From positions 6,236 through 70,235 of the forward strand of contig JBHHUP010000003.1 in NCBI GenBank assembly GCA_046753845.1: a stretch of DNA of 64,000 nt, in the 5' to 3' direction. The notes below the pieces were generated by a model. That model saw nothing but the letters and a program-made list of their open reading frames with translations. It searched no databases and was not told the origin of the DNA. Of the stretch, positions 23,847 through 53,441 are shown one piece after another (the first letter of the stretch is position 1; every line of letters starts with the position of its first letter). This stretch comes from Thermodesulfobacteriota bacterium. GTDB lineage: Bacteria; Desulfobacterota; GWC2-55-46; JADFVP01. Made by a program: the position numbers and the translations under genes.

Positions 23847-23863
23847 AGCAACGGCCGTGCCAG
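23847..23863 (-). promoter_or_regulatory. sigma-54 promoter (TGGCACG-N4-TTGCT) upstream of fliK
   Basis: Minus-strand reading: CTGGCACGGCCGTTGCT, about 55 nt upstream of the fliK ATG. It sits in a 335-bp AT-rich gap. Confidence 0.65.
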
Positions 23864-24115: not shown

Positions 24116-24676
24116 TTACCTGATGTCTTTTTTCAGCACACGGCTTATCTTTACGGATTTTTCCACGTTAACGAACCCCAGAATCTTACCGGCTACCTTC
24201 TCTCTCATGGTGCCGAGTATGGAGGCGGCCATGGCATCGTCAAGACGCTCTATCCTCGCGGCGGCGTCCTGAGGCGTCATACTCTCGTATATCTTAACAA
24301 GGTGCCTGGCCTTGCCGTTGTTAAAGGTATCAATTTTCGCACTCACTCTCTTAAGGTCTTTTATCAGGCCCTTGAGCTCCTTTACCCTCGTCTCTATATC
24401 GCCCCTTACATCGGCAAGATGGGTCATTCTCTCATTAAGTTCATCCTCTCTAATACGCAGTTCCCTGTCTTTTCGCTGAATAGCGAGAATAAGGGCTTTA
24501 TCCGTAGAGGGAGGCCTCTGTTCTGTTATATGAGATGATACTGCGGTCTCCGGCGGCAGACCCGCCGATACAATACCCGGGGAAAAGGGATCAAAGGTTG
24601 TAATAAACCACGTACTAAGAATGGAGAGCTTAAGTATAATAAGAGCGGCAATAACCTTATTTCTCATCTTTATCAC
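24116..24676 (-). CDS. YlxF/FlbB-like flagellar protein (N-terminal TM, coiled coil, MgtE-N-like domain)
   Basis: 186 aa, conserved position between fliJ and fliK as in the Bacillus fla/che operon. TM segment 'VIAALIILKLSILSTWFI' and a coiled-coil region. Confidence 0.45.
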   Translation of the reverse strand: MIKMRNKVIAALIILKLSILSTWFITTFDPFSPGIVSAGLPPETAVSSHITEQRPPSTDKALILAIQRKDRELRIREDELNERMTHLADVRGDIETRVKELKGLIKDLKRVSAKIDTFNNGKARHLVKIYESMTPQDAAARIERLDDAMAASILGTMREKVAGKILGFVNVEKSVKISRVLKKDIR

Positions 24677-31086: not shown

Positions 31087-31193
31087 CTCATCCTCTTTAA
31101 CAGGAAAGATAATTTTTTAACTAACTAAAAATACCTCATCAAGGCCAGCCGGCTCAAAATACCCGCCCTCATTAACCTCTCCACCATCTTCCT

Positions 31194-31257
31194 ACTCATC
31201 TGCCAGCCACATATGCCTGCCTTACCATCCTCCTGCTCATCTGCCAACCATATACGC
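31194..31257 (-). promoter_or_regulatory. pair of 23-bp imperfect direct repeats in the flgB upstream/leader region (candidate regulator binding sites)
   Basis: ctcatctgccagccacatatgcc (31194-31216) and ctcatctgccaaccatatacgcc (31235-31257) are 19/23 identical with a 41-bp offset. They lie in a strongly pyrimidine-rich (plus strand) tract. Confidence 0.45.
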
Positions 31258-31330
31258 CCAAGATCCCTGCGCCTATCTCCTTTAGATCCAGGACCCGGAG
31301 ACCATAACAGTGGCTGCCAGGGATATTAAT

Positions 31331-31433: not shown

Positions 31434-32780
31434 TCAAGGCGGGGCAGCGGCGCCGTACTCCTTGAGCTTATTCCGAAGTGTACGAATTGAAATGCCAAGC
31501 CTCATGGCGGCCCTTGTCCTGTTGCCTCCTGTATCATCGAGTGTCTTGTATATAAGGTCCCTCTCCACATCCTTAATGGTTATGCCCTGTAATGAAGGCC
31601 CCGTAGAGGCCGTTACACCCCGGCTGGCCTCATCTGCGCCGCCGTGACCGGTACATAGGAGCAGGTGCTCTTTACTAAGGACCGAGCCGCTGCTTAAAAG
31701 CACTGAGCGTTCTATGGTATTTTCAAGCTCCCTTACGTTTCCAGGCCATTGCCGCTCTTTCAAGTAAGCGATAGCCCCGGCGTCGATAGAGGTAAGGTGG
31801 CGTTTATACCGTGCGCTGAACCTCTTCATGAACCCATGGGCCAGAAATGTTATATCCTCGCTCCTGTTGCGGAGCGGCGGGATTACTATGGGAAAGATAT
31901 TAAGGCGGTAGAAGAGGTCTTCTCTGAAGCGGCCCTCCGTGACCTCACTTCGCAGGTCTCTATTGGTAGTAGCGATAATCCTGATATCAAGGCTTTTTAC
32001 CTTTTTTGCGCCAAGCCTCTCTACCTCCCTCTCCTGAATAACGCGCAGGAGCTTGGCCTGAAGCCTTACATCCATCTCGCTCACCTCGTCAAGGAGGATA
32101 GTTCCTTTATCGGCCTGTTCAAACTTACCCTCGCGGGCGGCATTAGCCCCTGTAAAGGCGCCTTTCTCAAAACCAAATAACTCGCTCTCAAGGAGCCCGT
32201 CAGGGATGGATGCGCAGTTAACGGCTACAAAAGGAGCGTCTCTCCTTGCGCTCTCATCGTGAATGAACCTTGACATGAGCTCCTTACCTGTGCCGGACTC
32301 TCCGCTTATCATCACGGTAGCGTCGCTGCCCGCGGCTATCCTTGCAAAGGCAAGGGTCTTGCTCATCACCGGAGAGCTCGTGGGCATGACCCGGGCCCCG
32401 CTTTTTCCGCCGCTGCCTCTTCGGCCGGCAAAGGTCTTATCTACAAGGCTCTCTAGAAGCTCAAGGTCAAAGGGTTTCTGAATAAAATCAAGAGCGCCCT
32501 CCTTTACCGCCTCAACGGCTTTTTTTACCGTTCCGAAGGCCGTGATTAATAGCACCGGCGTAGTGGGCTCTATCTTCTTCACCCCCTTCATTAACTCCAT
32601 ACCGTCCATGCCCGGCATCTTCATATCGCTTATTACGAGCCCGTACCTCCCGGCATGAAACATATCAAGGGCCTCTCTACCTGAAGCGGCGGTAGAGACC
32701 CTGTACCCCTTACGGCAGAGGGCCTCGTTAAGGGCCGTCATCATGCCAAGGTCATCATCAACAACAAGTATATCCTCCAT
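31434..32780 (-). CDS. sigma-54-dependent response regulator (NtrC family; FlrC/FleR-like)
   Basis: Receiver 'ILVVDDDLGMM...ISDMKMPGMDG'. AAA+ 'GESGTGKE' and 'GAFTGA'. C-terminal Fis-type HTH. Sits next to a soluble histidine kinase. Confidence 0.85.
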   Translation of the reverse strand: MEDILVVDDDLGMMTALNEALCRKGYRVSTAASGREALDMFHAGRYGLVISDMKMPGMDGMELMKGVKKIEPTTPVLLITAFGTVKKAVEAVKEGALDFIQKPFDLELLESLVDKTFAGRRGSGGKSGARVMPTSSPVMSKTLAFARIAAGSDATVMISGESGTGKELMSRFIHDESARRDAPFVAVNCASIPDGLLESELFGFEKGAFTGANAAREGKFEQADKGTILLDEVSEMDVRLQAKLLRVIQEREVERLGAKKVKSLDIRIIATTNRDLRSEVTEGRFREDLFYRLNIFPIVIPPLRNRSEDITFLAHGFMKRFSARYKRHLTSIDAGAIAYLKERQWPGNVRELENTIERSVLLSSGSVLSKEHLLLCTGHGGADEASRGVTASTGPSLQGITIKDVERDLIYKTLDDTGGNRTRAAMRLGISIRTLRNKLKEYGAAAPP

Positions 32781-32808: not shown

Positions 32809-33660
32809 TTATGATTCTACCCGTACTTCTTCCTGTGCCTCTTCAGACCACGGCAGAGATAACCTGAACTTCGTGCCCTCACCGGCTACGGATGAACATG
32901 TTATCTCGCCGCCATGAGCCGTGGCAATGGACGCCACTATGGCAAGGCCGAGACCTGTGCCGCTCGGGCGTGTGGTAAAAAAAGGATCAAAGACCCTGTC
33001 TTCTATGCTCTCATCCATGCCGCATCCCGTGTCCTCTATGGTAATCTCAAGTATTTTATCTTCTCTTACAGAGGTGGCTATTTTTATCGAGGCCCGATCC
33101 TTGCCGATGGCGTCAATGGCGTTAAAAAAGAGGTTCAGGAAGAGCTGACGAAGCAGCCCCGCGTCTGCGCGAGTCCTCGTGCTGCCGCTGTAGGAACGAA
33201 TTATCTCTACGTTATCACCGCAGCGTCCCGAGCATGCGGTCAGGGCATCTTCCAAGACGTCCCTTATCTCGATAAAATCCATATTAGGCTCGGGGCCGTT
33301 GGAGAATACAAGCATATCCGAGAGTATGCGGTCGAGGTTCCTCACACTGTCAAGGATATGTCCTGCGAGCTGCTGATTCTCGGTCTGACCCGATAGCTCA
33401 CGGCAGAGCAGGGTTGAAAATATCAGTATGGAGCCCATAGGGTTTCTAATCTCATGGGCAATCTTGGCGGCCATCTCTCCCATGGCCGCAAGGCGCGCCG
33501 TCCTCTGCTCGGCCTTATTCTTTCCGGAGAACTCTCGTTCAAGCTCACCGAATTTATCACCTAACATCTCGTACTGCCGCTCAAGCTTTCGCGAGGACTC
33601 CTCAAATTCCCTGAAGGCCCTGTTCAGGAAGGCCTTATCAATACTCTCGTTCATCTGCAT
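32809..33660 (-). CDS. soluble sensor histidine kinase (FlrB/FleS-like)
   Basis: H-box 'IAHEIRNPMGSI', HATPase 'DTGCGMD...GTGLGLAIV', no TM helix. The probable start is 'MQMNES' at 33660, two nt after the TPR gene stop; the ORF is called to 33705. Confidence 0.75.
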   Translation of the reverse strand: MQMNESIDKAFLNRAFREFEESSRKLERQYEMLGDKFGELEREFSGKNKAEQRTARLAAMGEMAAKIAHEIRNPMGSILIFSTLLCRELSGQTENQQLAGHILDSVRNLDRILSDMLVFSNGPEPNMDFIEIRDVLEDALTACSGRCGDNVEIIRSYSGSTRTRADAGLLRQLFLNLFFNAIDAIGKDRASIKIATSVREDKILEITIEDTGCGMDESIEDRVFDPFFTTRPSGTGLGLAIVASIATAHGGEITCSSVAGEGTKFRLSLPWSEEAQEEVRVES

Positions 33661-33662: not shown

Positions 33663-36083
33663 CTATTGTCCCCTGTTTTGCGCTATGGTAAGGGCCTCGG
33701 CCCACTCGCCGTAGGAGTTATATTTCTTCTTAAGTTCACTTACCGCCCGCACCGCCTCTTCGTCCATGCCGGCGCCTGCGTAGCTAAGTGATAAACGGTA
33801 CCTTGCCCATCTATCAGCGGCAAGAGAGAGATTATCCGCCATTGCAGCCGCCTCGGAGTAAGCCACCGCGGCGGCGGCGTATCCTCCGGAGATAAAGAGA
33901 GCGTCTCCGTACCCTGTCTTTGCCTCCAAAAGTCCTGCCCTGTCATTGATTTTTTTGTACTCCTTAATGGCCCGTGAATAAAGAGCCTTAGCCTCGCGCC
34001 ACCTGCCAAGCGCCTTATTGGCTCCGGCTCTCATGAGAAGACAATTAGCCCCCGTCCTGCCGCTGCCAAGACTTATCACCTCTTTATAATTACCCTTCAG
34101 GTACTGAGTCTCAATATAATACTCAGCCCAGAGAGATGCGTTCTCGGCTGCAGAGGAGATGCCCCTTGTGTCCTCAAGAAGCTTAGCCGCCGAGTTAAAG
34201 TCTCTCTGATCAAGATAGATACGTGCCAATGAGAGGTTTGCCTTCACTCTTATATCCCGGCGGCCGATTTTACCGGCTTTGCCAAGTGCCATAACCGCGT
34301 CAGGAGTAAGCCCTACTCTGTAGAGCGCTTCACCCACCCTCAGAAAATTTTCCGCCCTCTTGCCAAATGAGATCCAGTGGCCATAACGATAGTTAACGGT
34401 TACCACCTCAAGCCATTTTTTTTGCTTATACAGCTCCTTAAGCCAGTTATAAGCTGTCTTAGAGCGCAGCAGCCCCATCATCTCTGCGCCGGTGGCAAAA
34501 GGATAGAGAATAAAAAAATCGTCAAGGGCCTTCATGGCCTCGCCATGCTCCTTTAAGTCTTCAAGGACACCGGCAAGGGACAAGAGGGCTTCAGAGGATC
34601 CTATGGTCCTTGCGCCCGCCACCTCTCTATAGAGGTCTCTGGACTTTATAAGTATATGGTCGTCATGGGAGTAATAATCCGCAAGGGCGAGCATGGCCAT
34701 GGCAGCCCCCTCGCCATCGCCTCTCTTTTGAATTTTGGTATAACGCGTAACAGCCTCGTCAATATTACCGCCGGCCAGGATGGTGTCAGTCTCTCTCAAG
34801 GCAAAAAAAGACTCTATAAGGGACTGACCTCTAAAGCGTGTTCCAAGCCCCTTGAATATAATGCCCGCCCCCTTGTAATCACCACGCATCATCTTCAGGT
34901 CTGCAAGTCCCATGAGACTTAGAGGGTCTGTGAAATTATCAAGCTTTTCGTAATAAGACCATGCGGTCTTGAGCTCTCCTTTTAAAAAAAGCGAATCAGC
35001 AAGCCACGCAGCGGCTTCTTTAGAACCATCTTTACGGGCCTTTTTAAACCACTCTCTTGATTCGCTTACCCTGCCTGAAAAAAAGAGTACACGCCCTCTG
35101 CCAAGGGCGGCCGAGGCATGGAGCTTTTTCACACTCTTAGCCTCATAGGCCATGCCATAAAAGGCCATGGCCTCAGGATAGAGCCCCTCTCTCTCATAAG
35201 ACGAAGCAATAAGAAAGTGTACCATCGGTGTAAGGCCGTTCTCAGGGATACTTAAGAGGTCTGTCTCTACATAAGTATTAGATACGTCTTTTTTGATAAG
35301 CAAGATTATATCCTGAAGCGTCCTGGCACGAGGCATCTGCCCCTCTTCAGTAAGAGTTCTGAGATAACCCACGGCATCCATACCCTCTGTCCAACCCTTT
35401 AGGTGAGTTATTGGAAGATACTCACCTATCGTATCAAGGGCGGGGTCAGGGATATTACCGTAATAGTAATCCGTGAGGCGCTGCACCGTAGCCACTCTAT
35501 ACCTCCATCTCCAACCTTTATTGTAGAGAAGCGTATGTTTTCCCTCCTTGCTGTAAGGCTTAAGTGTAAACTTTTCTTCCTGGTTTTTTTTTGTCTTTGG
35601 CTTTACAAAATTAGATTTTCCGGCAAGGTGAGACTTCTTTACATTGGAGTGTGTGACCGTGGCGGCAGGCGCCGGTGTATGTGCTTTTTCGGGATACATA
35701 TCCACAACAATTCTGTATGGCTTATCCATAGTCCAGTACCTGACGCGAGCCATATTCTGCTTAAGTTCAACAAAAAAACTCGTAACAGGGGTATCACCAT
35801 CACTTTTCGTAGATACCTTTGTGAGTCTAAATAAATCCGTTCCGGCGTTACCGCCGCTAAATCCCTTGGACTCTATACCAAGAACTGATACTTCAATGGT
35901 CCTGCCGGTTTTTTTTGTACGATACCCGGCTTCGCTTCCGAGCTCTATCACAAGCCTGTGAAAATCTCTGTGCTCACCCGCCCTTGTTGAGAGAATATCT
36001 CCCTTGTCTCCGCCAGAGGCCGGCAAGAAGGTAGAGATAGATAAAAGAGGTATTATGATTATATACAGAATATACTTCAGCAC
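33663..36083 (-). CDS. secreted TPR-repeat protein with N-terminal AMIN-like domain
   Basis: 806 aa, GTG start with a GGAGGAG SD. Signal peptide 'MLKYILYIIIIPLLSISTFLPASG'. N-terminal 'FRLTKVSTKSDGDTPVTSFFVELKQNMARVRYWTMDKPYRIVVDM' resembles AMIN beta-domains. The remainder is TPR-like helical repeats (many A/Y/G-rich pairs). Confidence 0.6.
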   Translation of the reverse strand: MLKYILYIIIIPLLSISTFLPASGGDKGDILSTRAGEHRDFHRLVIELGSEAGYRTKKTGRTIEVSVLGIESKGFSGGNAGTDLFRLTKVSTKSDGDTPVTSFFVELKQNMARVRYWTMDKPYRIVVDMYPEKAHTPAPAATVTHSNVKKSHLAGKSNFVKPKTKKNQEEKFTLKPYSKEGKHTLLYNKGWRWRYRVATVQRLTDYYYGNIPDPALDTIGEYLPITHLKGWTEGMDAVGYLRTLTEEGQMPRARTLQDIILLIKKDVSNTYVETDLLSIPENGLTPMVHFLIASSYEREGLYPEAMAFYGMAYEAKSVKKLHASAALGRGRVLFFSGRVSESREWFKKARKDGSKEAAAWLADSLFLKGELKTAWSYYEKLDNFTDPLSLMGLADLKMMRGDYKGAGIIFKGLGTRFRGQSLIESFFALRETDTILAGGNIDEAVTRYTKIQKRGDGEGAAMAMLALADYYSHDDHILIKSRDLYREVAGARTIGSSEALLSLAGVLEDLKEHGEAMKALDDFFILYPFATGAEMMGLLRSKTAYNWLKELYKQKKWLEVVTVNYRYGHWISFGKRAENFLRVGEALYRVGLTPDAVMALGKAGKIGRRDIRVKANLSLARIYLDQRDFNSAAKLLEDTRGISSAAENASLWAEYYIETQYLKGNYKEVISLGSGRTGANCLLMRAGANKALGRWREAKALYSRAIKEYKKINDRAGLLEAKTGYGDALFISGGYAAAAVAYSEAAAMADNLSLAADRWARYRLSLSYAGAGMDEEAVRAVSELKKKYNSYGEWAEALTIAQNRGQ

Positions 36084-36109
36084 CGTGACTCCTCCATGTC
36101 ATAAGAAGA

Positions 36110-36127
36110 AGCAACAAACATGCCACG
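36110..36127 (-). promoter_or_regulatory. sigma-54 promoter (TGGCATG-N4-TTGCT) upstream of the TPR-kinase-regulator operon
   Basis: Minus-strand reading: CGTGGCATGTTTGTTGCT, 15-25 nt upstream of the GTG start. It is immediately downstream of the FleQ-like gene. Confidence 0.6.
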
Positions 36128-36297
36128 AGGAAAGCCCCGTGGCATCTATTGAGAAAAAGCCGTTTTTCTTATGGATAATTGGCCTGTTACGGCGATATGA
36201 AATGGAGATTTTACGGATTAGGCCGCAGTAAAGAGCCCGACGTCATAAGACAGACACCCACAATGTGTTGAGAGCTTGACCCTCAGGAGTTTACCCC

Positions 36298-37698
36298 TCA
36301 GGAATCGAGTCTCAGCCCTTTTCTCTTCATCTTTTCTATAAGGGTTGTCCTGTTGAGCTTCAAGAACTTGGCCGCGTTTTTCTTAACGCCATGCACCATG
36401 CCCAGGGCGTTGATAATCAGGTCCGTCTCGAACTTATCTACAACGGAATTAAAGTCAAGCCCCTCAGGGGAGATATAGACACGGTAATCAAAGCCCTTAA
36501 CGTGTTTTCTTGAGAGGAGAATCGTAGCCTTTTTGATGTTATCAGGGAGATCGTTTTCCACCACCTCGCCTTTTTCTTTAAGAACAACGATCCTCTCTAT
36601 AACATTTTCCATCTCACGTACATTACCGGGCCACTCATACTCCTCAAAGAGCCTCATAGCATTTGGAGACACTTTGGTTACGTCTTTATTCTTTGACTTC
36701 GAAATTGATTTGAGAAAATGTTTGATGAAGACAGGTATATCTTCTTTTCTCTCCCTTAAGGGGGGCATATCTATCGGGATTACATTAAGTCTGTAATAGA
36801 GATCCTCACGAAATTTTTTCTCCTTGATGGCCTTGGTGAGGTTCTGATTAGTGGCGGCCAGAACTCGGATGTCTACCTTAATAGTCTTTCTTCCGCCAAC
36901 CCTCTCGAACTCCTTTTCCTGCAGAACCCTCAGTATTTTGACTTGCAGGCCGGGGCTCATATCACCTATCTCATCAAGAAAGACCGTTCCGCCGTTGGCG
37001 GCCTCGAACCTGCCTATCTTCGTGGCTATAGCCCCTGTAAAGGCGCCTTTTTCGTGACCAAAGAGCTCACTCTCAAGGAGGTCTTCGGGGATGGCGCCGC
37101 AGTTTATGGGTACAAAGGGCTCACTGGACCTGTTGGACCCAAAATGCAGGGCCCGAGCCACTATCTCTTTACCTGTACCGGACTCGCCGAGGATAAGAAC
37201 AGTGGAGTCCGTATCTGCTACCTTGTTAATGATGCTTCTAACATGTTCTATCTTGTCGCTGGTGCCAAGGATACGGTCTATTAGCTTACGGCTTATGTTT
37301 CTTTTAAGCCTGAGATTTTCAGCAGTAAGCTCACTCACCTCAAAGGCCTTCTCAATGGTTACGAGGACCTCGACTTTATTGTAGGGTTTTTTGATATATG
37401 AAAAAGCTCCGGCGTTTAATGCATCCATGGCTTTTTTTATAGAGCCGTCGCTGGGAATAACAACGGCGCTCGTACTGGAGCTGGCACCTGTTATTGCACG
37501 GACGAACTCTATATCATTTATATCCGAGATGTTAAGATCGGCTATTACAACGTTGGGGGCGTTTCTTCTGATGTAGCTTATCGCGGCATCGGGTTTTTTT
37601 ATTGTATTAACAAAATAATCCTCGGCGCGAAAATTTTCTTTAAGGAACTTAGACATCGAGCCATCCTCTTCGACTAATAGAACATTCCTTTTCCTCAT
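36298..37698 (-). CDS. sigma-54-dependent transcriptional activator (FleQ/FlrA-like master regulator)
   Basis: 466 aa. Atypical N-terminal receiver-like domain. AAA+ 'GESGTGKE', 'GAFTGA', 'EWPGNVREMEN'. C-terminal HTH. Confidence 0.85.
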   Translation of the reverse strand: MRKRNVLLVEEDGSMSKFLKENFRAEDYFVNTIKKPDAAISYIRRNAPNVVIADLNISDINDIEFVRAITGASSSTSAVVIPSDGSIKKAMDALNAGAFSYIKKPYNKVEVLVTIEKAFEVSELTAENLRLKRNISRKLIDRILGTSDKIEHVRSIINKVADTDSTVLILGESGTGKEIVARALHFGSNRSSEPFVPINCGAIPEDLLESELFGHEKGAFTGAIATKIGRFEAANGGTVFLDEIGDMSPGLQVKILRVLQEKEFERVGGRKTIKVDIRVLAATNQNLTKAIKEKKFREDLYYRLNVIPIDMPPLRERKEDIPVFIKHFLKSISKSKNKDVTKVSPNAMRLFEEYEWPGNVREMENVIERIVVLKEKGEVVENDLPDNIKKATILLSRKHVKGFDYRVYISPEGLDFNSVVDKFETDLIINALGMVHGVKKNAAKFLKLNRTTLIEKMKRKGLRLDS

Positions 37699-38120: not shown

Positions 38121-38247
38121 GTGATGTTGAGCATGCCAGAGTTGGGTGAGATATCCGAGGTGTAAAAATATTGTACTTTAAAGGTGCGGGACTGTCAATA
38201 TGAAAATTAAATAGTCTAATTTGTGACACAGAGGCTGTGCCATGCGG

Positions 38248-38465: not shown

Positions 38466-39320
38466 ATGTTTCCCATAATAGGATTAGTCGTAGTTTTTGG
38501 TGCCATAATCGCAGGTTACACAATGGAGGAAGGTAACTTTTCTATTCTCATACAGCCAGCGGAGCTCATTACCATCGGCGGAGCGGCCATTGGCTCTCTT
38601 GTTGTCTCATGCCCGTCAAATCTCTTAAAAGACGTCTTTAAGGCCATCCCGGCCATCATAAAAGGGAGTACTCTCAAGAAGAGCCATTACATTTCACTAC
38701 TAACGCTATTATACGGTATTTTTTCAAAGATAAAAAAAGAGGGCCTGCTATCTGTAGAAAAAGATGTGGAGAGCCCAAAAACCAGTCCCCTCTTCAAAGG
38801 CTGTAAGGATATCATGAAAAATCACCATGCTCTGAATTTCCTATGCGATAACTTGAGGGTATTTATCATAGGCATTAAGCCTACGGAGATGGAAGATCTA
38901 ATGGATATTGAGATGGACAGTCACCACGAGGAGGCTGCTGTTACCCCCGGCATCATCACCAAGGTTGGCGATGCCCTTCCGGGATTCGGTATTGTTGCGG
39001 CGGTGCTCGGGATTGTCATTACCATGGGTAAGATGAGTGAAGGCCCAGAGGTCATCGGGCACAGCGTTGCCGCTGCACTTGTAGGGACATTTCTGGGAAT
39101 ACTTCTGAGTTACGGTGTAGTTGGTCCCCTTGGCAGCCACCTTGAGCACAAGAACAGAGAGGACGGCAAATACATAGAGACCATAAAGATAGCGCTTCTG
39201 GCCTTTGCCAAGGAGCTGCCGCCTCAGATGGCGGTAGAGGCCGGAAGAAGGACAATATTCAGCGGGGCGCGGCCATCCTTCAAGGATCTTGAGGACGCTA
39301 TCAAGAAAAACAAAAAATAA
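38466..39320 (+). CDS. motA: second flagellar stator protein MotA
   Basis: 284 aa, four TM helices, 'GFGIVAAVLGIVITMGKMSEGPEVIGHSVAAALVGTFLGILLSYGVVGP'. Confidence 0.85.
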   Translation: MFPIIGLVVVFGAIIAGYTMEEGNFSILIQPAELITIGGAAIGSLVVSCPSNLLKDVFKAIPAIIKGSTLKKSHYISLLTLLYGIFSKIKKEGLLSVEKDVESPKTSPLFKGCKDIMKNHHALNFLCDNLRVFIIGIKPTEMEDLMDIEMDSHHEEAAVTPGIITKVGDALPGFGIVAAVLGIVITMGKMSEGPEVIGHSVAAALVGTFLGILLSYGVVGPLGSHLEHKNREDGKYIETIKIALLAFAKELPPQMAVEAGRRTIFSGARPSFKDLEDAIKKNKK

Positions 39321-39332
39321 TAAGGTCTGGTA

Positions 39333-40136
39333 ATGGAAAGCAACGAGACTCAGCCCATAATAATTAAGAAGGTCATTAAAAAAGGGCATGGCGGCGGCCA
39401 CCACGGCGGAGCGTGGAAGGTTGCCTATGCCGACTTTGTAACGGCCATGATGGCTTTTTTCATGGTGCTCTGGCTTGTGGCCATGATGAGCATTGAGGCC
39501 AAGAAAGACATGGCCGAGTACTTCAGGAGTTATACTATATTTGAGGGTACCGAGGCCGGCGGCGGTAAAGGCGTCTCCATCATGAGCGGTAATCCTGTCC
39601 TGCTAAATAAGGCATCGGAGGTTACGACGCCCAAACCAAGCTCCAGCTCGTCAAGCAGCCTGAGTATTCTGCTTACAAAATCAATTAACACTCACCTGCG
39701 TGAATTAAAGGATCAGATACTTATATTTTCAACTAACGACGGGGTAAGACTTGAGCTTGTAGACCTTGATGACAGCCCAATGTTTGAGCGCGGCGGCGGA
39801 AGGCTTGTACAGAGGGGCGAGGAGGTCTTCAAGGTCCTCGCTGAATCTCTAAAGAAGATGCCTTACAAGATAGCCATCGAGGGACATACGGACAGTTTCA
39901 AGTTCGCCAATAAGGAGCATACGAACTGGGAGCTCGCCGCCGAGAGGGCCAACAGCGCAAGAAGGGAGCTTATAAAGAACGGCCTTGATGAGAAACGCAT
40001 CTCCAGGGTATCGAGTTTTGCAGACGTAGTACCCTTAAACGGAAGAGATACCTTTGACCCCATCAACAGGCGTGTAAGTATTCTTGTGCAGAAGAACAAA
40101 TACTCACCCGGGGCAGAAGACGATATCTTCAGGTAG
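39333..40136 (+). CDS. motB: second flagellar stator protein MotB (OmpA-like)
   Basis: 'WKVAYADFVTAMMAFFMVLWLV' and the OmpA motif 'IEGHTDSFKF...NWELAAERANSARREL...NRRVSILV'. Confidence 0.85.
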   Translation: MESNETQPIIIKKVIKKGHGGGHHGGAWKVAYADFVTAMMAFFMVLWLVAMMSIEAKKDMAEYFRSYTIFEGTEAGGGKGVSIMSGNPVLLNKASEVTTPKPSSSSSSSLSILLTKSINTHLRELKDQILIFSTNDGVRLELVDLDDSPMFERGGGRLVQRGEEVFKVLAESLKKMPYKIAIEGHTDSFKFANKEHTNWELAAERANSARRELIKNGLDEKRISRVSSFADVVPLNGRDTFDPINRRVSILVQKNKYSPGAEDDIFR

Positions 40137-40337: not shown

Positions 40338-40919
40338 TTAGTGAGTACCGGCATCTTTCTTATTCGAACCGCTCCGTATCATCCTTCTCTGCCAGGCGAA
40401 GATATACCGCACAATTCTCTCCCTTACCCTGTCATCCATATCCACAAACTTTATCCCCACCTTCCATCCCCCCTCGATATTATCGCATACCCAGACGACC
40501 TCTCCTGTGACATCAAGGTCCTGGGTCTGATTAGGGAGAAATAATTTTATCGCAAGCTCATCGCCCTCACTGAACTGCTTATTGCATAGAATCTTAATAC
40601 CTCCGCCGCTTATGTTATCTATACGGGCCTCGGGTATCTCAAAACAGCGTTCGCTGGTGGTCTGCGTAAGGAGCTTTTTCAGCTTCTGGTTTATCTCAAT
40701 CAGAAGATCGTACATATCAGGGTCGTCTGAGGAGATGGCCTCCACCTTTCTTGCAAAGGACCTCAGCTCCCGGATATTCACGGCGGTATCTGTAATATTG
40801 ACACCTTGTTTTGCCACATAATACATGGGTATACTGTCATCTATTCTCACATACTCGCGATTATTAGAAATCATGCCAACCATGTACATCACCTCTTCTC
40901 TTTCATTGACATTATCCAT
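40338..40919 (-). CDS. PilZ-domain protein (YcgR/MotI-like candidate c-di-GMP flagellar effector)
   Basis: 193 aa. 'RIDNISGGGIKILCNKQFSEGDELAIKLFL...GEVVWV...GIKFVDMD' matches the PilZ (D/N)xSxGG barrel motif. No canonical RxxxR motif at the usual spacing. It is the last gene of the flagellin-fliD-fliS operon. Confidence 0.5.
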   Translation of the reverse strand: MDNVNEREEVMYMVGMISNNREYVRIDDSIPMYYVAKQGVNITDTAVNIRELRSFARKVEAISSDDPDMYDLLIEINQKLKKLLTQTTSERCFEIPEARIDNISGGGIKILCNKQFSEGDELAIKLFLPNQTQDLDVTGEVVWVCDNIEGGWKVGIKFVDMDDRVRERIVRYIFAWQRRMIRSGSNKKDAGTH

Positions 40920-40926: not shown

Positions 40927-41271
40927 TTACCTTTGTAATTTCATGTTAACCATAGGCGAGGCGTAGGCCCTGTGCGCCCTGGTACAATGTAATACTTTCC
41001 GGAGTTCCCGGCGGGTTTCTTCAAGCGCGCCTTCCATAGAGACCCGGAGATCGCAGTCAAAGTTAAGTATCTCTTTTATAATATCTTGCTCCATATTTTT
41101 TTGCGCCTCCACCGCCTTTATCTTACTTATTCTGGAGATAATCTCATCGCGTTCAAGGATGGAACCCGCGAGCTCAGTGAGACGATTTTCAGAAAAAAGT
41201 CCTTTTTGGGCCCTGGCGATATTGAGCAGTCTCTTTAATAAATCAATTCTATCCGCGTTCTCAAGCTCCAT
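40927..41271 (-). CDS. small helical protein in the FliT position (possible flagellar chaperone)
   Basis: About 115 aa downstream of fliS, as fliT is in the Bacillus fliD-fliS-fliT arrangement. Probable start 'MELENADRIDLLKRLL'. No diagnostic motif. Confidence 0.3.
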   Translation of the reverse strand: MELENADRIDLLKRLLNIARAQKGLFSENRLTELAGSILERDEIISRISKIKAVEAQKNMEQDIIKEILNFDCDLRVSMEGALEETRRELRKVLHCTRAHRAYASPMVNMKLQR

Positions 41272-41674
41272 ATCCAGCCCCCGCTTCAATTGAAGGTTTT
41301 TCAGCCCCTGCGCCGGATGCCACAAGAGCGTCCCAGCCTTCTTTGACCTCGGCGAATAGCGCCGTAACACCCTCGATAATCCTTATAGAGTTCTTATTAT
41401 TTGCCTCGGCAAGCCTCGTAAGTGAGTGCAGATAGAGGTCCCGGAGGTTAATGGCCACCTCTTCACCCCTCTGCATATCAAGAGCGTTGTATAGCTCGCT
41501 TATAATGGCGATGGATCTGTTTATATACTCGCTGCGCTTCTCTATATCATTGTCTTTTATCGCCAGAGCCGCGAGCCTGTTGAACTTGATAACACCCTCG
41601 TAAAGCATTACAACAAGGCGAACCCTGTCAGATGTCATTACCTGAACCTTCTGATATGCCTTGATACCTTTCAT
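41261..41674 (-). CDS. fliS: flagellin-specific chaperone FliS
   Basis: 137 aa. 'RLVVMLYEGVIKFNRLA' and 'IISELYNALDMQRGEEVAINLRDLYLHSLTRLAEAN'. Confidence 0.85.
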   Translation of the reverse strand: MKGIKAYQKVQVMTSDRVRLVVMLYEGVIKFNRLAALAIKDNDIEKRSEYINRSIAIISELYNALDMQRGEEVAINLRDLYLHSLTRLAEANNKNSIRIIEGVTALFAEVKEGWDALVASGAGAEKPSIEAGAGYGA

Positions 41675-44152: not shown

Positions 44153-44788
44153 TCACATATCGCCTCGGCTGAAGACCTTTTCCTCCATTTCTTTAAGGAG
44201 CGGTGTCAACTCATATTCGAGTATATCGGCAAGAAGCACATTATCGAGGGCCAGCCTCGCGTCCTTTAACGCAGACATATTCCGCAGTATATCCTCGTAA
44301 TAGGTTAGGGGATTTTCTTTAAATACATCTATGCTGTAAGCAAGGCCGCATTTATAGAGCGCGTCCATGGTCCTTACCATCTCTCCGGTGCTCTCAATAA
44401 TAGCGCCAAGGTAGTTATCTATCTCGCCTGAGCCGCGTCTGAGCGCGCCTGTCATATTCATCGCGAGCTCGCAGATAAAGGTAATGTACTCGCCAACAGT
44501 GTATATACCCTGCAGTACAACGTGGTCAATGCCGCTCGTAAAGAGCCGTAACTCGCCATAGCTTTTAAGGGGCTTATTAATAGCAGAGGCGTCCTTCCAC
44601 AAAGCGCCCTCGTTTCTGCCGTCAACCCATAACTCCATAATAAAACGCCTTAAGGGTTTTAAATCAGACTCCACGGCATCAACAAGATCGCCTACGGTAG
44701 AGCTTACTTTTACGCCGCTAAAATCCAGCCGGGCATCGTCAAGGTATATTTCCGTAATCATAGGAGACTCCTTTCTTGCTTTTTTCAC
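44153..44788 (-). CDS. hypothetical protein translationally coupled (ATGA) to the Maf-family gene
   Basis: 211 aa. No recognizable motif. 4-nt overlap with the upstream maf-like gene. Confidence 0.4.
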   Translation of the reverse strand: MKKARKESPMITEIYLDDARLDFSGVKVSSTVGDLVDAVESDLKPLRRFIMELWVDGRNEGALWKDASAINKPLKSYGELRLFTSGIDHVVLQGIYTVGEYITFICELAMNMTGALRRGSGEIDNYLGAIIESTGEMVRTMDALYKCGLAYSIDVFKENPLTYYEDILRNMSALKDARLALDNVLLADILEYELTPLLKEMEEKVFSRGDM

Positions 44789-46701
44789 TTTTTATTAACA
44801 GCAACCGGCATCTCTGCTTGCCCCTCCAAATTCAAGCACCGAACCTTTTTAAGGGCATCTGATATCTTGGGCAGGAAAAGAAGACACATCTTACGTACCT
44901 CCTTGTATGTGCGTATAGTACGATCGATATCCTTTCTGAACTGGTCTTCTGTTGAGCTCTCCTCATCCTCTTTCAGGTACTCCTTAAGGTCGTATGTATA
45001 CTCAACAAGGGCCTCCCAGAGAAAAGAGACCTCGCAGACAGCCTTAAAGAGCCTGCGTTCCTTTCTCCTTATCCTGTCAAGTTTACCGCTAAGCTCGGTA
45101 CGAAGCCCCCTGGATATAAAATCAACCTTAAGTACGCCGGCCCCCTTGATTATCTCCCCGGAGAGTTTTTCAACAATTCTTACCCTGTCTCGAAGTTTTG
45201 TAAAAGACTCTATAAGCCCTCTTATGTCTACATCAGGGGGCGTGCTCTCGCTTTGATGAAGTATCTTGTCCACGTCTACGGGTTTTTGCAGGTGCCTTCT
45301 GATAACCTCTTTGAGGGTTGTATGCTCCATGCCCTTTATAAAGGCCCCGCCCTCAGTGGCGTTGTATACACGGATTGAGGGAAACTGCTCTTTAAGCAGC
45401 GCAGTATAACGCTCAAACCACTGATGAAAGGTTACCCAGTCGTATTTGCTCGCTACGGGTTCACCGTTAAAACCTTGCAGCCACAGCAGCTTATGCGTAA
45501 TAGTACGCCGGTGACCTGATATATAATGCTCTTTTACACTGACAAGCCCCTTATCCTTGTCAATGGATATCCTCTGCTTATCGTAAACGCCTCCGCCAAC
45601 GTGGGTCATGTTTTTATCAAAGGCAAGATCCTGGCCGAGAAATATTATAGGGTCGCAGCCGAACATTACGCCCATATCAAACATGGCCGTAGTTACGGAG
45701 CCGCCGATTGATACAAAGGACTTACTCCCCCAGAGGCGCGCCTGCTGAAGGCTCAAGGCGATAAAGGGGCTGTAGAAGATAAATTTACCATGGGCTTCGC
45801 GCTTGAACATCTCCGGATGCGAGACCTCTGAGAGTATAAGGCGTATCTTTTTATCGGCCTCACCGCCGTCAAAGTATTCATCAAGATTAACTTTTTCTCC
45901 TGATATTACCGCGTGCGGCACGATACCGTAGCTTAGCAGGCTCTTATAAGCGGTTACGGCGGAGACTATAAAGGCCTTGTCTTTTAGCTCCGCAAGAAGT
46001 GATACGTTTTTTCGAAGCGATGGCCCGGCACCTACGATAATCATGGGAACGCCCTTGAATTGGTCACGCATAACATCTACAGAGGGATAGACAGGAAAGG
46101 CGTCGAGGTTGGCGAAATAATTCATCAGCCAGTCCAGCCTTGAGTCTATCTCTGTCTTTATGCCAACCATCTGCGAGGTATGGGCGTTCTGTATCTTAAC
46201 GAGAAATTCCTTAAGCTCACCCTGGAAGGTCAACCTGTAAGGCATGGTGTGGTAGCCGATGATACTGTCAACCCCTTCTGTAAACTGCTGAACCCGTGCG
46301 ATAAAGGGCCCTATATAATTTGCAAGGTAGACCCTCTGTCCGGAGAATTCTTTACTGAGGTCTATCTTCATAAGCACAGCCTTTAGTATCTCCATAGAGG
46401 GCTCATAGATAAAAATTTTCTGTGTGCCGCGCTTTAAGAGGGTAGACATAAGGTAACCGCATCCGAGTCCGAATAAGGCCACGGAGTCGGGTTTCTTGCC
46501 GAGTATCTCTTCGGCCTGCTCGTCAGCCTCCTTCCACGGCCCGTACTGGCTGTTAAAGAGGCGTCCCTTGTAGGAGAGGACAAACTCCTTATTCTTACCT
46601 CTGTAGATCTTGGCTACGTCCTTATTAAAGGCGCGCAGTCTCTCGGCGAGGATGCTGTCCTGTTTTGCTATGGCGGCGCAGTTAGTCTCGAAAATACTCA
46701 T
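44785..46701 (-). CDS. maf: motility-associated factor (Maf/DUF115 family) putative flagellin nonulosonic-acid glycosyltransferase
   Basis: 638 aa. The central 'GVPMIIVGAGPSL...NATEGGAF' MptE/DUF115-like core is typical of Campylobacter/Helicobacter/Aeromonas Maf proteins. Adjacent to flagellin and the pse genes. Confidence 0.65.
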   Translation of the reverse strand: MSIFETNCAAIAKQDSILAERLRAFNKDVAKIYRGKNKEFVLSYKGRLFNSQYGPWKEADEQAEEILGKKPDSVALFGLGCGYLMSTLLKRGTQKIFIYEPSMEILKAVLMKIDLSKEFSGQRVYLANYIGPFIARVQQFTEGVDSIIGYHTMPYRLTFQGELKEFLVKIQNAHTSQMVGIKTEIDSRLDWLMNYFANLDAFPVYPSVDVMRDQFKGVPMIIVGAGPSLRKNVSLLAELKDKAFIVSAVTAYKSLLSYGIVPHAVISGEKVNLDEYFDGGEADKKIRLILSEVSHPEMFKREAHGKFIFYSPFIALSLQQARLWGSKSFVSIGGSVTTAMFDMGVMFGCDPIIFLGQDLAFDKNMTHVGGGVYDKQRISIDKDKGLVSVKEHYISGHRRTITHKLLWLQGFNGEPVASKYDWVTFHQWFERYTALLKEQFPSIRVYNATEGGAFIKGMEHTTLKEVIRRHLQKPVDVDKILHQSESTPPDVDIRGLIESFTKLRDRVRIVEKLSGEIIKGAGVLKVDFISRGLRTELSGKLDRIRRKERRLFKAVCEVSFLWEALVEYTYDLKEYLKEDEESSTEDQFRKDIDRTIRTYKEVRKMCLLFLPKISDALKKVRCLNLEGQAEMPVAVNKK

Positions 46702-46732
46702 ATCAATACCCCGTACTTTTTACCATGGCAGG

Positions 46733-48823
46733 TTACATTACCTTCTCTGCCATGACCTTGAATCTTACCTCGTTAATTCCTCGCCATACCCAATAGGCCG
46801 TATCATCAACCTCGCCAGCGGAGTGATAGAGGCGCAGAAAAAACTCATTACCGGGTTCGCTGTAATTTATCATGGGCACGGTGTGCACAATGTTGCGCTC
46901 CGAAGATATGCATAGGGTCTTTTTCCTGTCCCCAAAGCTTACCCATCCTTCCGTGGCCCCAAGACAGCTTGTGCCCGATATGGCCGGGCTTACGGGCTTC
47001 GCGTGAGAGAGACTGCGACCGCTTAAGCTGAACCTCTCAGGCCCCGTACCGCCGTTAATGGTCTCGAACCACAGGTCTTTCTTATCAAAGGCCCCGGGCA
47101 TAAGCGTAAATATACCGAGGCGCAGGCTTGAAGCCGCCAGTCCCCGTGCCGTCAGCCTGTAGCTTAGAGTAAATTCATCCCCGCCCCGGGGGATTTGATA
47201 CTCCTTTACAAGCCTGCCTATGGACGTATCAATTACCGCGCTTATACGCACCCCGGCCTCGTCTTCAATCACAGTTGGCACGACAGGCACAAGGTCCGTA
47301 GTCTTTGTGCCGGCTCGGTCCGTATGTATGAGATGCCCTGAAAAAAAATCGGCCCCGAGCTCAATGGAATCAAAGTAACCGTGCCCGAGGGTGCCGAGCA
47401 GAGGCCGCGCTGAGACATGGGGAAAAAGAACCGAGGCAAGGGCAAGGCCCCTGTCTTTCAAAAACTCAATCTCAACCCTGCCGGTGGAGATGCGAAGGCG
47501 CCTTGCGTCCTCGTAGACCCTGACCTTGCTCCTGCCCGCCAGAGCCCTTGCCCCCTTTACAGGTAAAGAGAAGGCCACGCCCCCTGTGGTGCCCGTAGCG
47601 CGGAGCGCCCCTTCCTGTACAATGGATTCACTTCGCGCGAGATCCATGGAACCTTCAAGAGTAAGGTTTTTCCCTCTCTCCAGAAGACCGGCCTTGGAGA
47701 TTAGAGACCTGGTCTCAAAACTCAGCCACCCCAGTCGTTCGTTTAAATAAGCGAGCTTATCATCAGTGGTGTTTGTACGAAAATCACTGCCCCAGACCTC
47801 ACATAGCATCTCACACAGCTCACCCCTCCCCCGTAGCGCGCCCCCTGCCTCAAGGGCCAAAAGCTTCTTATATACACCGAGACACCGCGCGTTAAGATGG
47901 GCGCTGTCCCTACCCGTGACGCTCCACCTTAGCGGGTTGTACCGCTCCTGCTTCTTGCATACAATGGGCGTCTCCGTTGATTCAAGCCTTATGGGCGGGG
48001 CGTCGGAGCTACCCTTGAATTGACGTAGAATTTCCTCTGGCCTTAAAAGGGCAAATCTCTTCTCCATTATCAGCCCCTTTAAGAGCTCTCTTATCCTCTT
48101 AAAATCCCCCCGCGGCATCCGGCCGAGCCCCGGCCTGTAATCAAAGACCTCGGCGTCATTGGAATAGGCCACAAAGGCCCTCTCCTGCTCCTTATTATAA
48201 TGAGAGAGCAGATACTCTCTGTATTCTCTGGTAGATAGCTCGCCGCTGACGCATCGGCCAAACTTCTGAAAGGCTATGGAGTTTGACCATAGCAGCCCCA
48301 TGGACTCGCCGGGAAGCCTTCCGGCGGCCCTCTGCGGCGAGTACATAATCTCCGGCGCATACTCGTTATGACGGGAGCAGTTATTCCAGTCCATGATTAA
48401 GGCATCATAACCGGCCTCTTTATATAACCCCACAAGCCCGGCAGAAAAGGTCTGCTCATTGACAAGGGCTACTGATGGGCTAAACCCGAGAATTTCCTCG
48501 TAATACTTATTGCCAAGCTCAAGGTTCCATCTGTTAACCCCGGCCGGAATTAGAGGCATAATTGACTGAGCGTAACCTGAGCCGATAAAACTCATCCTGC
48601 CCGACCTTAATAACTCCTTAAGGCCTCGGGTAAAGGCCGGGTCTATGCTTTGAACCTCGCGAAGGGTCCATGCAGGCATCTCAATGGCGATAGGAATCCC
48701 CTCCTCGGCCATACGAAGTAAGGGCCAATAGCAGTTTTTGATAACAACAGGAAACTCCTCTCTCGCTATGAGAGAAAAAGCCAGATTGCAGTGAAATAAT
48801 ACGTAAAGGTTAAGCCTTGCCAT
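46733..48823 (-). CDS. large protein with a GH57-like N-terminal domain, function unknown
   Basis: 696 aa. The N-terminal 'LNLYVLFHCNLAFS' block resembles the GH57 / (beta/alpha)7 glycoside-hydrolase-like fold. The C-terminal half is uncharacterized. Co-operonic with maf. Confidence 0.35.
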   Translation of the reverse strand: MARLNLYVLFHCNLAFSLIAREEFPVVIKNCYWPLLRMAEEGIPIAIEMPAWTLREVQSIDPAFTRGLKELLRSGRMSFIGSGYAQSIMPLIPAGVNRWNLELGNKYYEEILGFSPSVALVNEQTFSAGLVGLYKEAGYDALIMDWNNCSRHNEYAPEIMYSPQRAAGRLPGESMGLLWSNSIAFQKFGRCVSGELSTREYREYLLSHYNKEQERAFVAYSNDAEVFDYRPGLGRMPRGDFKRIRELLKGLIMEKRFALLRPEEILRQFKGSSDAPPIRLESTETPIVCKKQERYNPLRWSVTGRDSAHLNARCLGVYKKLLALEAGGALRGRGELCEMLCEVWGSDFRTNTTDDKLAYLNERLGWLSFETRSLISKAGLLERGKNLTLEGSMDLARSESIVQEGALRATGTTGGVAFSLPVKGARALAGRSKVRVYEDARRLRISTGRVEIEFLKDRGLALASVLFPHVSARPLLGTLGHGYFDSIELGADFFSGHLIHTDRAGTKTTDLVPVVPTVIEDEAGVRISAVIDTSIGRLVKEYQIPRGGDEFTLSYRLTARGLAASSLRLGIFTLMPGAFDKKDLWFETINGGTGPERFSLSGRSLSHAKPVSPAISGTSCLGATEGWVSFGDRKKTLCISSERNIVHTVPMINYSEPGNEFFLRLYHSAGEVDDTAYWVWRGINEVRFKVMAEKVM

Positions 48824-48857
48824 AACGGGTTATCCCTTCTTTTGTCAAAAAAATTCT

Positions 48858-50438
48858 TTACGGGTATCTCTCACTCATCTTAAGTAGATCGTACTTTACA
48901 AACATGCCCGATGTCTCGTAGAGGACTTTTAGGAATATGGGCCTCTTTCTGCGCCATACATCGCTAATGTATCTGGGTGCGGCAGCGGGGTTTGACTTTA
49001 TGAGGTGATGGGTGCGGTCGGCCTCAACAATGGTCTCAATGTACTTCGAGGTAAAATCCCCTGTCGTAATATTCGGTTTTACCACCTCGAGCTTATCGTA
49101 GCTGAAGCCATCGGAAAACAGGCCCTCGGTCTCGCACCTCTTGAATAACTCCGTGCCCGGCAGAGGAGTAGCGATGTAGATTTCCCTGCTGTCAAATAAA
49201 CCGCTGTAGTTGGCCATGTACAGTGACCTTCTGATGTCCTTTTTTGTCTCTCCTGGCAGGCCTATGACAAAGGTTCCCGTAAGGTGCACGCCTTTTTTTC
49301 TCGCATACCGCAGCACCTCCATGGCCTTTGTTAACTTAAGAGGTTTTTTAACTACCCTTGTAAGCACCTCCTGAACACCTGACTCTATGGCAAAACCCAT
49401 TGAGGTACATCCTATCTCCATTAGTTTATCGATAAGCTCCTCATCCATGCACCAGAGCGCGAGGACCATGAAGTGAATCTCAAGTTTAAAACCCTGCCTC
49501 TTGAACTGGTCGCAGAACTCCTTTGCACGGGCCTTGTCATGGGTGAAGTTATCGTCTATTATCATGAGTTTTTTTATCTTGTATCTGTCTACCAGAAAAC
49601 GTATCTCAGCGAAAACCTCGTCGAGCTTACGGGCCCGAAACCTCCGCCCCATGGTGCGGTGCACGGAGCAGAAGACGCATGTCCCGGCGCACCCTCTGGT
49701 GGTAAGCACCGTGGGCATGGCCTGAGGCTCGCCCCAGGTAACCTTATTGGGTTTATAGTTACTGGAATATTTTTCGTATGGAAATAAATGCCATGCAGGG
49801 TAGGGCAGCGCGTCAAGGTCGGCTATAAAGGGACCCTGTGCGTTATTTACCACCGCCTCACCGTCTCTCCAGACAAGGCCCGGAACAGTACCGTATGAAG
49901 GGACATCGTTCTCTTTATTATCCTTATTATCGCTACTCTCTTTACCGCAGTCGCACTTTGCGCAGCCCTTGCAGTTATCACCGATGGCCCGTAGAAGAGC
50001 TGGAAAAGAAAGCTCTGCCTCACCCTTTAAGACAAAGTCTATTGCCCTGTTCTCCATAACCTCCTCTGCCATGGAGGTTGGATGATTGCCGCCCACTACT
50101 ACGACTGCCTCGGGCAGCATCTCCTTTACAAGGCAAGCCGTCTCGTTCATTGAGCCCACCATTACAGAAAAATTACAGCTAATACCCACAAGGTCGGGTG
50201 AGAATTTTTTAATCCTCTCCCTTACCTCATCCATGGGTATACCAACATCCACATATCCCTCTGTAAGAGGCGCATCTCTATCAAGGCCCTCGGTCTGGCA
50301 ATCAAGTATGGCTACGGTATAACCTTCGGCCTCAAGCACGGAGGCAAGGTACATAATCCCCATCGGCGGGTAGACGATGCGTTGGCCCGAGGTGGCTATC
50401 TTCATATTAGGCTGTAAAAGAAGTATCCTCTTTATCAT
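48858..50438 (-). CDS. B12-binding radical SAM enzyme
   Basis: 526 aa. N-terminal cobalamin-binding-like Rossmann region 'VVVVGGNHPTS'. CX3CX2C cluster 'TTRGCAGTCVFCSV'. Confidence 0.75.
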   Translation of the reverse strand: MIKRILLLQPNMKIATSGQRIVYPPMGIMYLASVLEAEGYTVAILDCQTEGLDRDAPLTEGYVDVGIPMDEVRERIKKFSPDLVGISCNFSVMVGSMNETACLVKEMLPEAVVVVGGNHPTSMAEEVMENRAIDFVLKGEAELSFPALLRAIGDNCKGCAKCDCGKESSDNKDNKENDVPSYGTVPGLVWRDGEAVVNNAQGPFIADLDALPYPAWHLFPYEKYSSNYKPNKVTWGEPQAMPTVLTTRGCAGTCVFCSVHRTMGRRFRARKLDEVFAEIRFLVDRYKIKKLMIIDDNFTHDKARAKEFCDQFKRQGFKLEIHFMVLALWCMDEELIDKLMEIGCTSMGFAIESGVQEVLTRVVKKPLKLTKAMEVLRYARKKGVHLTGTFVIGLPGETKKDIRRSLYMANYSGLFDSREIYIATPLPGTELFKRCETEGLFSDGFSYDKLEVVKPNITTGDFTSKYIETIVEADRTHHLIKSNPAAAPRYISDVWRRKRPIFLKVLYETSGMFVKYDLLKMSERYP

Positions 50439-53377: not shown

Positions 53378-53441
53378 ACTAATCCTCCATATTTATAGGC
53401 CTTGTTAACTTCGCTCTCCTTCCCGCCTGCTCCACCGCTTT

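Follow-up and report, generated by a model that had tools for sequence, protein, structure and literature searches.

We analysed a 64,000-nucleotide (nt) stretch of the genome of a Thermodesulfobacteriota bacterium (assembly GCA_046753845.1, contig JBHHUP010000003.1, forward-strand positions 6,236 to 70,235; hereafter the window), which is one polar-flagellum cluster with FlhF/FlhG-type GTPase and ATPase proteins. Between a gene for a sigma54 activator and one for a soluble histidine kinase, it encodes a secreted protein of 806 amino acids (aa) that consists largely of tetratricopeptide repeats (TPRs). By analogy with characterised motor proteins, we regard this TPR protein as the probable periplasmic spoke, or stator scaffold, of the polar flagellar motor, and hence as the counterpart of PflA and MotK in uncultured Thermodesulfobacteriota. 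The evidence comes from the architecture of the protein, from its promoter and operon junction, and from the position of its gene among flagellar genes of related organisms. The gene and its parts are as follows.

33663-36083, minus strand: secreted AMIN-linker-TPR protein, 806 aa, PflA/MotK-like spoke candidate (open reading frame (ORF) with GTG start, Pfam TPR matches, AlphaFold2 (AF2) model)
36089-36095, minus strand: ribosome-binding site GGAGGAG, 5 nt before the GTG start of the TPR gene
36012-36083, minus strand: predicted signal peptide, aa 1-24, MLKYILYIIIIPLLSISTFLPASG (sequence, helix 2-18 of the model, AXA-type in family members)
35691-35996, minus strand: AMIN beta-sandwich domain, aa 30-131, eight strands
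35529-35684, minus strand: disordered Lys/Pro-rich linker, aa 134-185 (predicted local distance difference test score (pLDDT) <50; variable in length and sequence in alignment A1 of the close family)
33675-35516, minus strand: TPR superhelix, aa 190-803, 36 helices, about 17 repeat pairs (Pfam, alignment, AF2 model)

The N-terminus, MLKYILYIIIIPLLSISTFLPASG followed by GD, includes a single Lys, a hydrophobic core of 17 residues and the motif A-S-G, and it has no Cys. It resembles a Sec signal peptide without lipobox that, to judge from the sequence, would be cleaved after aa 24. Distant relatives carry textbook AXA-type signal peptides. With a signal peptide and no membrane anchor, the protein has the features of export to the periplasm, and at most 2-3 of its residues are cytoplasmic. 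Since the TPR protein has no Cys, it has no lipobox, and we rejected the idea of a lipoprotein; in some relatives Cys residues occur outside a canonical lipobox.

The AF2 model was computed with a ten-sequence family alignment as input (mean pLDDT 74.6) and comprises a helix (2-18), an eight-stranded beta-sandwich (30-131), a disordered segment (134-185) and 36 helices (190-803). In this model the beta-sandwich closely resembles the AMIN folds of AmiC and PilQ, where AMIN is joined to an amidase or a secretin and not, as here, to a TPR rod. The TPR protein itself misses the Pfam gathering threshold for AMIN (PF24837, 17.6 bits versus a 27-bit cut-off); among 41 relatives, 12 match PF24837 (best E 9e-9) and five match PF11741 (best E 4.5e-7). 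Several TPR families of Pfam score above their cut-offs on the protein. The superhelix starts with a near-invariant N-x-G-W-R-W-x-x-R and also holds a Y-E-R-E-G-x-Y-P-E motif; across 41 family sequences E304 never varies, and conservation reaches at least 90% at W191, R192 and R196. The preliminary description of this DNA, made from the letters alone, had proposed a secreted protein with AMIN and TPR parts, and the signal-peptide-like N-terminus, the AMIN fold in the model and the TPR matches bear it out. We rejected membership of CpoB/YbgF (TIGR02795, 30.9 versus a 90.1-bit cut-off over 93 residues only, with no tol-pal genes in the window) and of MamA or HaaT (scores far below cut-off).

The TPR protein thus passes from a beta-sandwich or AMIN domain through an unstructured linker into a long TPR superhelix, and the order of parts is the same in PflA (paralysed flagellum protein A) of Campylobacter jejuni and Helicobacter pylori, whose beta-sandwich, unstructured linker and 16 TPRs make up spokes that scaffold stators (PMC12222027). 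When the full-length model was compared with PDB by Foldseek, the best match was 9hmf_K, a chain of 773 residues from the periplasmic scaffold of C. jejuni (E 4e-12, 852 aligned columns); the best match to a generic TPR protein had an E-value about 1000-fold worse. By its length this chain is PflA, since 773 residues correspond to PflA residues 16-788. The likeness to PflA that had been suggested beforehand is upheld by the order of parts and agrees with the best structural match, though this match may not go beyond a generic TPR similarity.

A second likeness is to MotK from the Fla2 system of Cereibacter sphaeroides, and with it to CC_2058 of Caulobacter crescentus; MotK we compared by its published description. 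MotK is periplasmic; its AMIN domain, modelled on AmiC and PilQ, is N-terminal and is joined to disordered regions and a TPR body. Its gene lies in a flagellar cluster with that of a MotE/FlgY-type protein. Its loss leaves cells paralysed; MotK is needed for rotation and not for assembly, binds MotB2 and MotE, and has been proposed to anchor to peptidoglycan and support MotB (PMC10954123). It differs from the TPR protein in having motE and motA as neighbours instead of sigma54 regulators, and it comes from a different phylum. FlgY-PflA, MotE-MotC/MotK, FlbB-FlcB and CC_2059-CC_2058 have been proposed to be homologous pairs that go back to an ancient E-ring with spokes, and the N-domain of PflA has been called an AMIN domain derived from PilQ (PMC13023049; PMC11870540). 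The same sources, a 2026 review and the preprint behind it, report TPR proteins close to flagellar genes in roughly half of all flagellated species; as a rule there is just one, and it is more PflA-like than PflB-like (PMC13023049; PMC11870540).

The TPR gene forms a unit with two regulatory genes, behind a promoter of its own. The elements concerned are these.

36110-36125, minus strand: sigma54 (-24/-12) promoter TGGCATGTTTGTTGCT, an exact match to TGGCAY-N5-TTGCW, 27 nt upstream of the GTG start
23847-23862, minus strand: exact sigma54 promoter before fliK (consensus match)
19340-19355, minus strand: exact sigma54 promoter before fliL (consensus match)
36120-36145, extended 36116-36149, minus strand: conserved hairpin of 11 pairs whose 3' arm is the -24 element, then a U-rich tract
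32809-33660, minus strand: soluble histidine kinase, 283 aa, FlgS/FlrB-like (HisKA and HATPase_c domains)
31434-32780, minus strand: NtrC-family response regulator, FlgR/FlrC/FlbD-like (receiver domain (REC), sigma54 AAA+ and HTH_8)
36298-37698, minus strand: upstream sigma54 enhancer-binding protein (EBP, the activator), 466 aa, whose REC keeps the acceptor Asp (domain matches)
38170-38198: sigma70-like promoter of the upstream EBP (11/12 matches)

The ATG of the kinase gene stands 2 nt past the TAG stop of the TPR gene, and the kinase contains no hydrophobic segment and no transmembrane segment. Junction, domains and consensus match agree with the three-gene unit of TPR protein, soluble kinase and NtrC-type regulator that the preliminary description had placed under a sigma54 promoter. 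That promoter is real, but the coordinates given for it (36110-36127) were 2 nt longer than the consensus match. Three exact matches occur in the window versus 0.15 expected, a number reached by none of 100 shuffles, and all three are intergenic and on the coding strand, ahead of the TPR gene, fliK and fliL. In 11 of 14 related loci the TPR gene was preceded, at a distance of 22-132 nt, by a promoter-like match to a degenerate consensus. Directly before flgB we found no match to the consensus, only a weak GG-N10-GC site at -259. Its sigma54 promoter makes the TPR gene an early, class-II-like gene that is made together with the checkpoint regulators. The preliminary description had read the arrangement as coupling a motor structure to the class III switch; what the data establish is co-regulation, from a promoter of the early, class-II-like kind.

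The hairpin lies at the same place in the related loci L001-L006 (RNA fold -21.3 kcal/mol, z -4.06). In an alignment of only seven close sequences, 90.5% of the cells were paired, six pairs were changed on both sides, and the covariation score was reached by none of 500 shuffles. The 5' arm co-varies with the promoter spacer (ATG/CAT versus CTCG/CGAG). No such hairpin was found in the more distant loci L008-L012. The hairpin probably serves the upstream activator gene as its terminator and overlaps the promoter of the TPR gene.

The family to which the TPR protein belongs was revealed by an exhaustive hidden Markov model search of 1.84 billion representatives, after two word-indexed homology searches that gave only ten close relatives and TPR noise. 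About 45 representative clusters (50% identity) match the protein over its full length at E<1e-30; then comes a gap, and then generic TPR proteins. Where members have a name at all, it is only 'tetratricopeptide repeat protein'. An AMIN domain is present in about two thirds of the full-length representatives. The other third or so, of about 650-750 aa (for example P0024, P0029, P0031, P0033, P0034, P0037, P0040 and P0165; loci L009 and L010), run from the signal peptide through a basic linker into the TPR body and keep both the NxGWRWxxR motif and the gene position. Going by the sequences, the putative wall-binding module is repeatedly present or absent across the family.

The gene order EBP-TPR-(kinase)-regulator-flgBC-fliEF(GHI) recurs in 12 loci (L001-L010, L013 and L014) from uncultured Thermodesulfobacteriota, 'Deltaproteobacteria' and Nitrospiraceae, and all 12 related loci that are long enough have the TPR gene in the same slot, with the sigma54 activator on one side and the flgB-fliI block on the other. 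Conservation of the gene position, which had been put forward earlier as a check, was found in every related locus examined. The close loci L001-L004, all from metagenome-assembled genomes (MAGs) of Thermodesulfobacteriota, and L006 keep the complete series activator-TPR-kinase-regulator-flgB-flgC-fliE-fliF-fliG-fliH. Contigs end inside the TPR gene in L005 and in flgB in L008. Three distant members also have the order activator-TPR-kinase-regulator-flg/fli (L008 to flgB only), as does a Nitrospiraceae MAG, whose secreted TPR protein of 742 aa shares only 26% identity over the C-terminal part. The short contigs L011 and L012 are compatible with the order, as the following gene is visible, a PAS-kinase gene in L012. 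Overlaps or very short gaps between TPR gene and kinase gene were seen in other loci too. The more distant AMIN-TPR proteins P0055 and P0062 (957-972 aa; L013/L014) are encoded directly before a sigma54 regulator and flgBC-fliE(F), without a kinase. The TPR gene is therefore linked to the basal-body operon of the flagellum rather than to the kinase. In the Nitrospiraceae locus (L007), a stand-alone receiver protein and a PAS hybrid kinase (4635-6652) precede the flagellar activator, and the kinase after the TPR gene has an extra PAS domain; the input layer there is more elaborate than in the window.

Within this fixed position the protein itself changes quickly. Among the annotated flagellar and regulatory genes compared across L001-L006, it is the fastest-diverging (48-67% identity, versus 87-95% for the activator, 76-86% for the regulator, 81-96% for FliG and 89-93% for MotA), in keeping with what has been published on PflA-type proteins, namely that their sequence is not conserved. 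Equally variable (45-69% identity) is only an unannotated 147-aa ORF next to a PilZ gene (40927-41370, minus strand), which has no family match and whose position is kept in L001 and L003-L006.

A spoke of this kind would need partners at the motor, and the window offers the following.

24116-24676, minus strand: FlgY/FlbB/MotE-like E-ring candidate, 186 aa, between fliJ and fliK
38466-40136, plus strand: stator set 1 (MotA 38466-39320, MotB 39333-40136), divergent from the activator gene
29-1500, minus strand: stator set 2 (MotA 724-1500, MotB 29-727)
18717-19295, minus strand: FliL, with its own exact sigma54 promoter

The 186-aa ORF is hydrophobic at its N-terminus and continues with a coiled coil and a C-domain of the MgtE_N/ARM-like kind. 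It matches Pfam MgtE_N (E 6.9e-5) and NCBIfam collar_FlbB (E 3.8e-6), the latter in a co-linear alignment (64-158 / 67-160), and this FlgY/FlbB-like protein is the predicted partner of the TPR spoke. Both stator sets that had been announced in the preliminary description are present.

Pairs of this type have been catalogued in cultured Thermodesulfobacteriota and Nitrospirota by Feng et al. (2025 preprint, PMC11870540), who list a flagellum-proximal TPR protein together with a FlgY homologue as 'potential PflA homologs'. The lengths of FlgY homologue and TPR protein are 192 and 809 aa in Desulfobulbus propionicus (TPR protein WP_015724899.1), 194 and 801 aa in Desulfocapsa sulfexigens (WP_015405282.1), about 181 and 700 aa in Geobacter, and 259 and 723 aa in Nitrospira inopinata (PMC11870540). 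In that catalogue a TPR protein had to lie at most five genes from flagellar genes, in a genome with a FlgY homologue (an MgtE_N match near fliJ/fliK) (PMC11870540). The window shows the same arrangement, with the TPR gene three genes from flgB and the FlgY-like ORF 24116-24676 between fliJ and fliK. Alike are also the phylum, the size classes (about 800 aa, and about 700 aa as in the members without AMIN) and the single TPR protein per genome. The accession numbers of the catalogued TPR proteins are 9-10 apart from those of their FlgY homologues; the corresponding distance in the window is 11 genes, and in the kinase-less loci L013/L014 the TPR gene would lie 10 genes before the slot after fliJ, if a FlgY-like gene stands there as in the window. 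Unlike our family, the catalogued entries were picked by TPR content and proximity only, and we treat them as putative orthologues of the TPR protein. A conserved sigma54 promoter and a fixed position between activator and two-component genes are not described in the part of the text of Feng et al. that was accessible.

In the mechanism that we infer by analogy with PflA and MotK, the TPR protein would be exported by Sec, and its AMIN domain would then be fastened to peptidoglycan or to an outer rim partner, like the N-domain of PflA with PflB. The TPR rod would extend radially from an E-ring, formed by the 186-aa FlgY/FlbB-like protein around the MS-ring, to the periplasmic parts of MotB and FliL. 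In this position the spoke would hold stator units at a fixed radius and at high occupancy. Transcribed from the sigma54 promoter, presumably by the upstream activator, the gene would be expressed with the earliest tier, and its product would be in place before the co-transcribed kinase and regulator switch on the rod and hook genes.

Several points weigh against a spoke. No PflB-like second TPR protein is encoded in the window. A sequence link to PflA was not found when all PDB chain sequences were compared with three profiles, A1 from the close family, A2 from the AMIN domain and A3 from 41 diverse members (A2 and A3 to E 10); apart from a weak match to the AMIN domain of PilQ (E 0.27), nothing but designed or generic TPR proteins came up. 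All family members come from uncultured organisms. Moreover, since about one third of the full-length representatives lack AMIN, wall anchoring cannot be essential to the role of the family.

The AMIN domain also allows a different explanation, in which it would target polar or septal peptidoglycan while the TPR rod recruits other factors, so that the protein would act in placement or wall remodelling (positioning, wall opening or P-ring assembly). Such a role would suit a fold close to AmiC and PilQ, whose AMIN domains bind peptidoglycan, the FlhF/FlhG-type proteins of the cluster, which are consistent with a polar flagellum, and a gene of the early tier, before the rod. We nevertheless consider it unlikely: many family members occupy the same gene position without AMIN, and mutants in PflA, MotK and CC_2058 are paralysed but flagellated, their flagella being neither misplaced nor absent. 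That the protein is a general envelope TPR protein (CpoB/YbgF-, LpoA-, BamD- or PilF-like) unrelated to the flagellum is highly improbable. Such families score far below cut-off and match no more than 1-3 repeats, the window has no neighbouring genes of the tol-pal, bam or pil kind, and the slot in the flagellar regulon behind a sigma54 promoter is kept in 12 related loci including that of the Nitrospiraceae MAG.

The operon itself suggests that the TPR protein might be the periplasmic input or checkpoint part of the two-component system and report the state of the envelope or of assembly to the kinase, directly or via the MS-ring/E-ring. The tight junction of 2 nt, the overlaps and short gaps in other loci, and the TPR-kinase-regulator order kept in Thermodesulfobacteriota MAGs and the Nitrospiraceae MAG are in line with this. 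However, the kinase is cytoplasmic, without a transmembrane or periplasmic segment, the exported TPR protein has essentially no cytoplasmic residues, and P0055 and P0062 are encoded directly upstream of a sigma54 activator and flgBC with no kinase. In addition, what FlgS and FlrB, the homologous soluble kinases, are understood to read is the MS-ring and the export apparatus in the cytoplasm, as far as the accessible part of the source goes (PMC7064773). We therefore judge an input function, and with it the envelope sensor feeding the kinase that the preliminary description had offered as its alternative, to be distinctly unlikely. A membrane-anchored sensor was rejected in view of the soluble kinase, the exported TPR protein and the kinase-less loci.

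If the protein is a spoke, the operon link could still be a functional one: assembly of the spoke at the MS-ring/E-ring might be part of what the soluble kinase reads, via FliF/FliG, before the rod and hook are licensed. We give this idea only a slim chance. In such a case Thermodesulfobacteriota and Nitrospirota would produce the checkpoint kinase and a wall-anchored AMIN-TPR spoke in stoichiometric amounts, and a periplasmic stator scaffold would be an obligatory step of the flagellar transcriptional checkpoint.

Kinase and regulator belong to the flagellar sigma54 two-component type, with a soluble kinase, a regulator of REC-AAA+-HTH architecture, basal-body neighbours and sigma54 promoters. 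FlrB/FlrC of Vibrio, FlgS/FlgR of Campylobacter and FlbD of Caulobacter are alike in combining a HisKA/HATPase kinase with a REC-AAA+-HTH regulator; the pair described here is encoded beside flgB-fliE-fliF. All NCBIfam equivalog scores remain below cut-off (FlgS 104/600, FlgR 346/750, FlbD 424/750), so both proteins are analogues or relatives and not the named orthologues. To our knowledge, no secreted TPR gene is part of the FlrB/FlrC, FlgS/FlgR or FlbD operons, and we found no relevant report in the literature of a TPR gene within flrBC-type operons or the FgrM operons of Geobacter. The upstream 466-aa EBP is a candidate master regulator. The 347-nt gap between the response-regulator gene and flgB contains a 35-nt direct repeat in two copies (31183-31258; 86% identical, 41-nt spacing), about 97-172 nt upstream of flgB, which could be an activator-binding site or a leader element.

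The remaining genes of the window complete the flagellar cluster. Downstream of the regulator follow flgB, flgC, fliE, fliF, fliG, fliH, fliI, fliJ, the 186-aa ORF, fliK, flgD and flgE, and then fliL, fliM, fliN, fliO, fliP, fliR, flhB, flhA, the FlhF-/FlhG-type genes and fliA. After fliA come a HEAT-repeat gene, cheR, two receiver-domain genes, cheA, cheB and the second motAB pair; the HEAT-repeat protein, of the PBS-lyase type, has 640 aa (6347-8269, minus strand). On the other side, beyond the upstream activator, lie the divergent motAB pair, a PilZ gene, fliS, fliD, a flagellin gene and a flagellin-glycosylation island. The PilZ-domain protein (193 aa; 40338-40919, minus strand) adjoins the divergent motAB pair and could be a YcgR-like cyclic di-GMP brake. 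The island after the flagellin gene (44153-63464, minus strand) encodes a Maf-type glycosyltransferase, NeuB, a CMP-sugar cytidylyltransferase, aminotransferases, two methyltransferases, a B12/radical-SAM enzyme, an ATP-grasp ligase, a GH57-like protein and dehydrogenases, a content that suggests an elaborately decorated nonulosonic-acid glycan.

The locus is no new kind of system. The preliminary description had spoken of a novel coupling, but Feng et al. (PMC11870540) already catalogue pairs of TPR protein and FlgY in the phylum, and the claim is largely pre-empted by the literature of 2024-2026. What our analysis adds is a delineated sequence family with a firm AMIN fold and variants without AMIN, together with a conserved address: in Thermodesulfobacteriota MAGs and one Nitrospiraceae MAG, the gene stands behind a sigma54 promoter and is flanked by the activator and the FlgS/FlgR-like pair. 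Not until 2024-2026 was it recognised that E-ring and spoke scaffolds (FlgY with PflA or MotK) are widespread, and beyond Campylobacterota, Alphaproteobacteria and spirochaetes the evidence for them consists of computer catalogues based on proximity. The TPR family and its address are concrete targets for genetics and cryo-electron tomography in cultured relatives such as Desulfobulbus and Desulfocapsa, and the fixed regulatory address is a simple marker by which such spokes can be recognised in genomes even though their sequences are poorly conserved.

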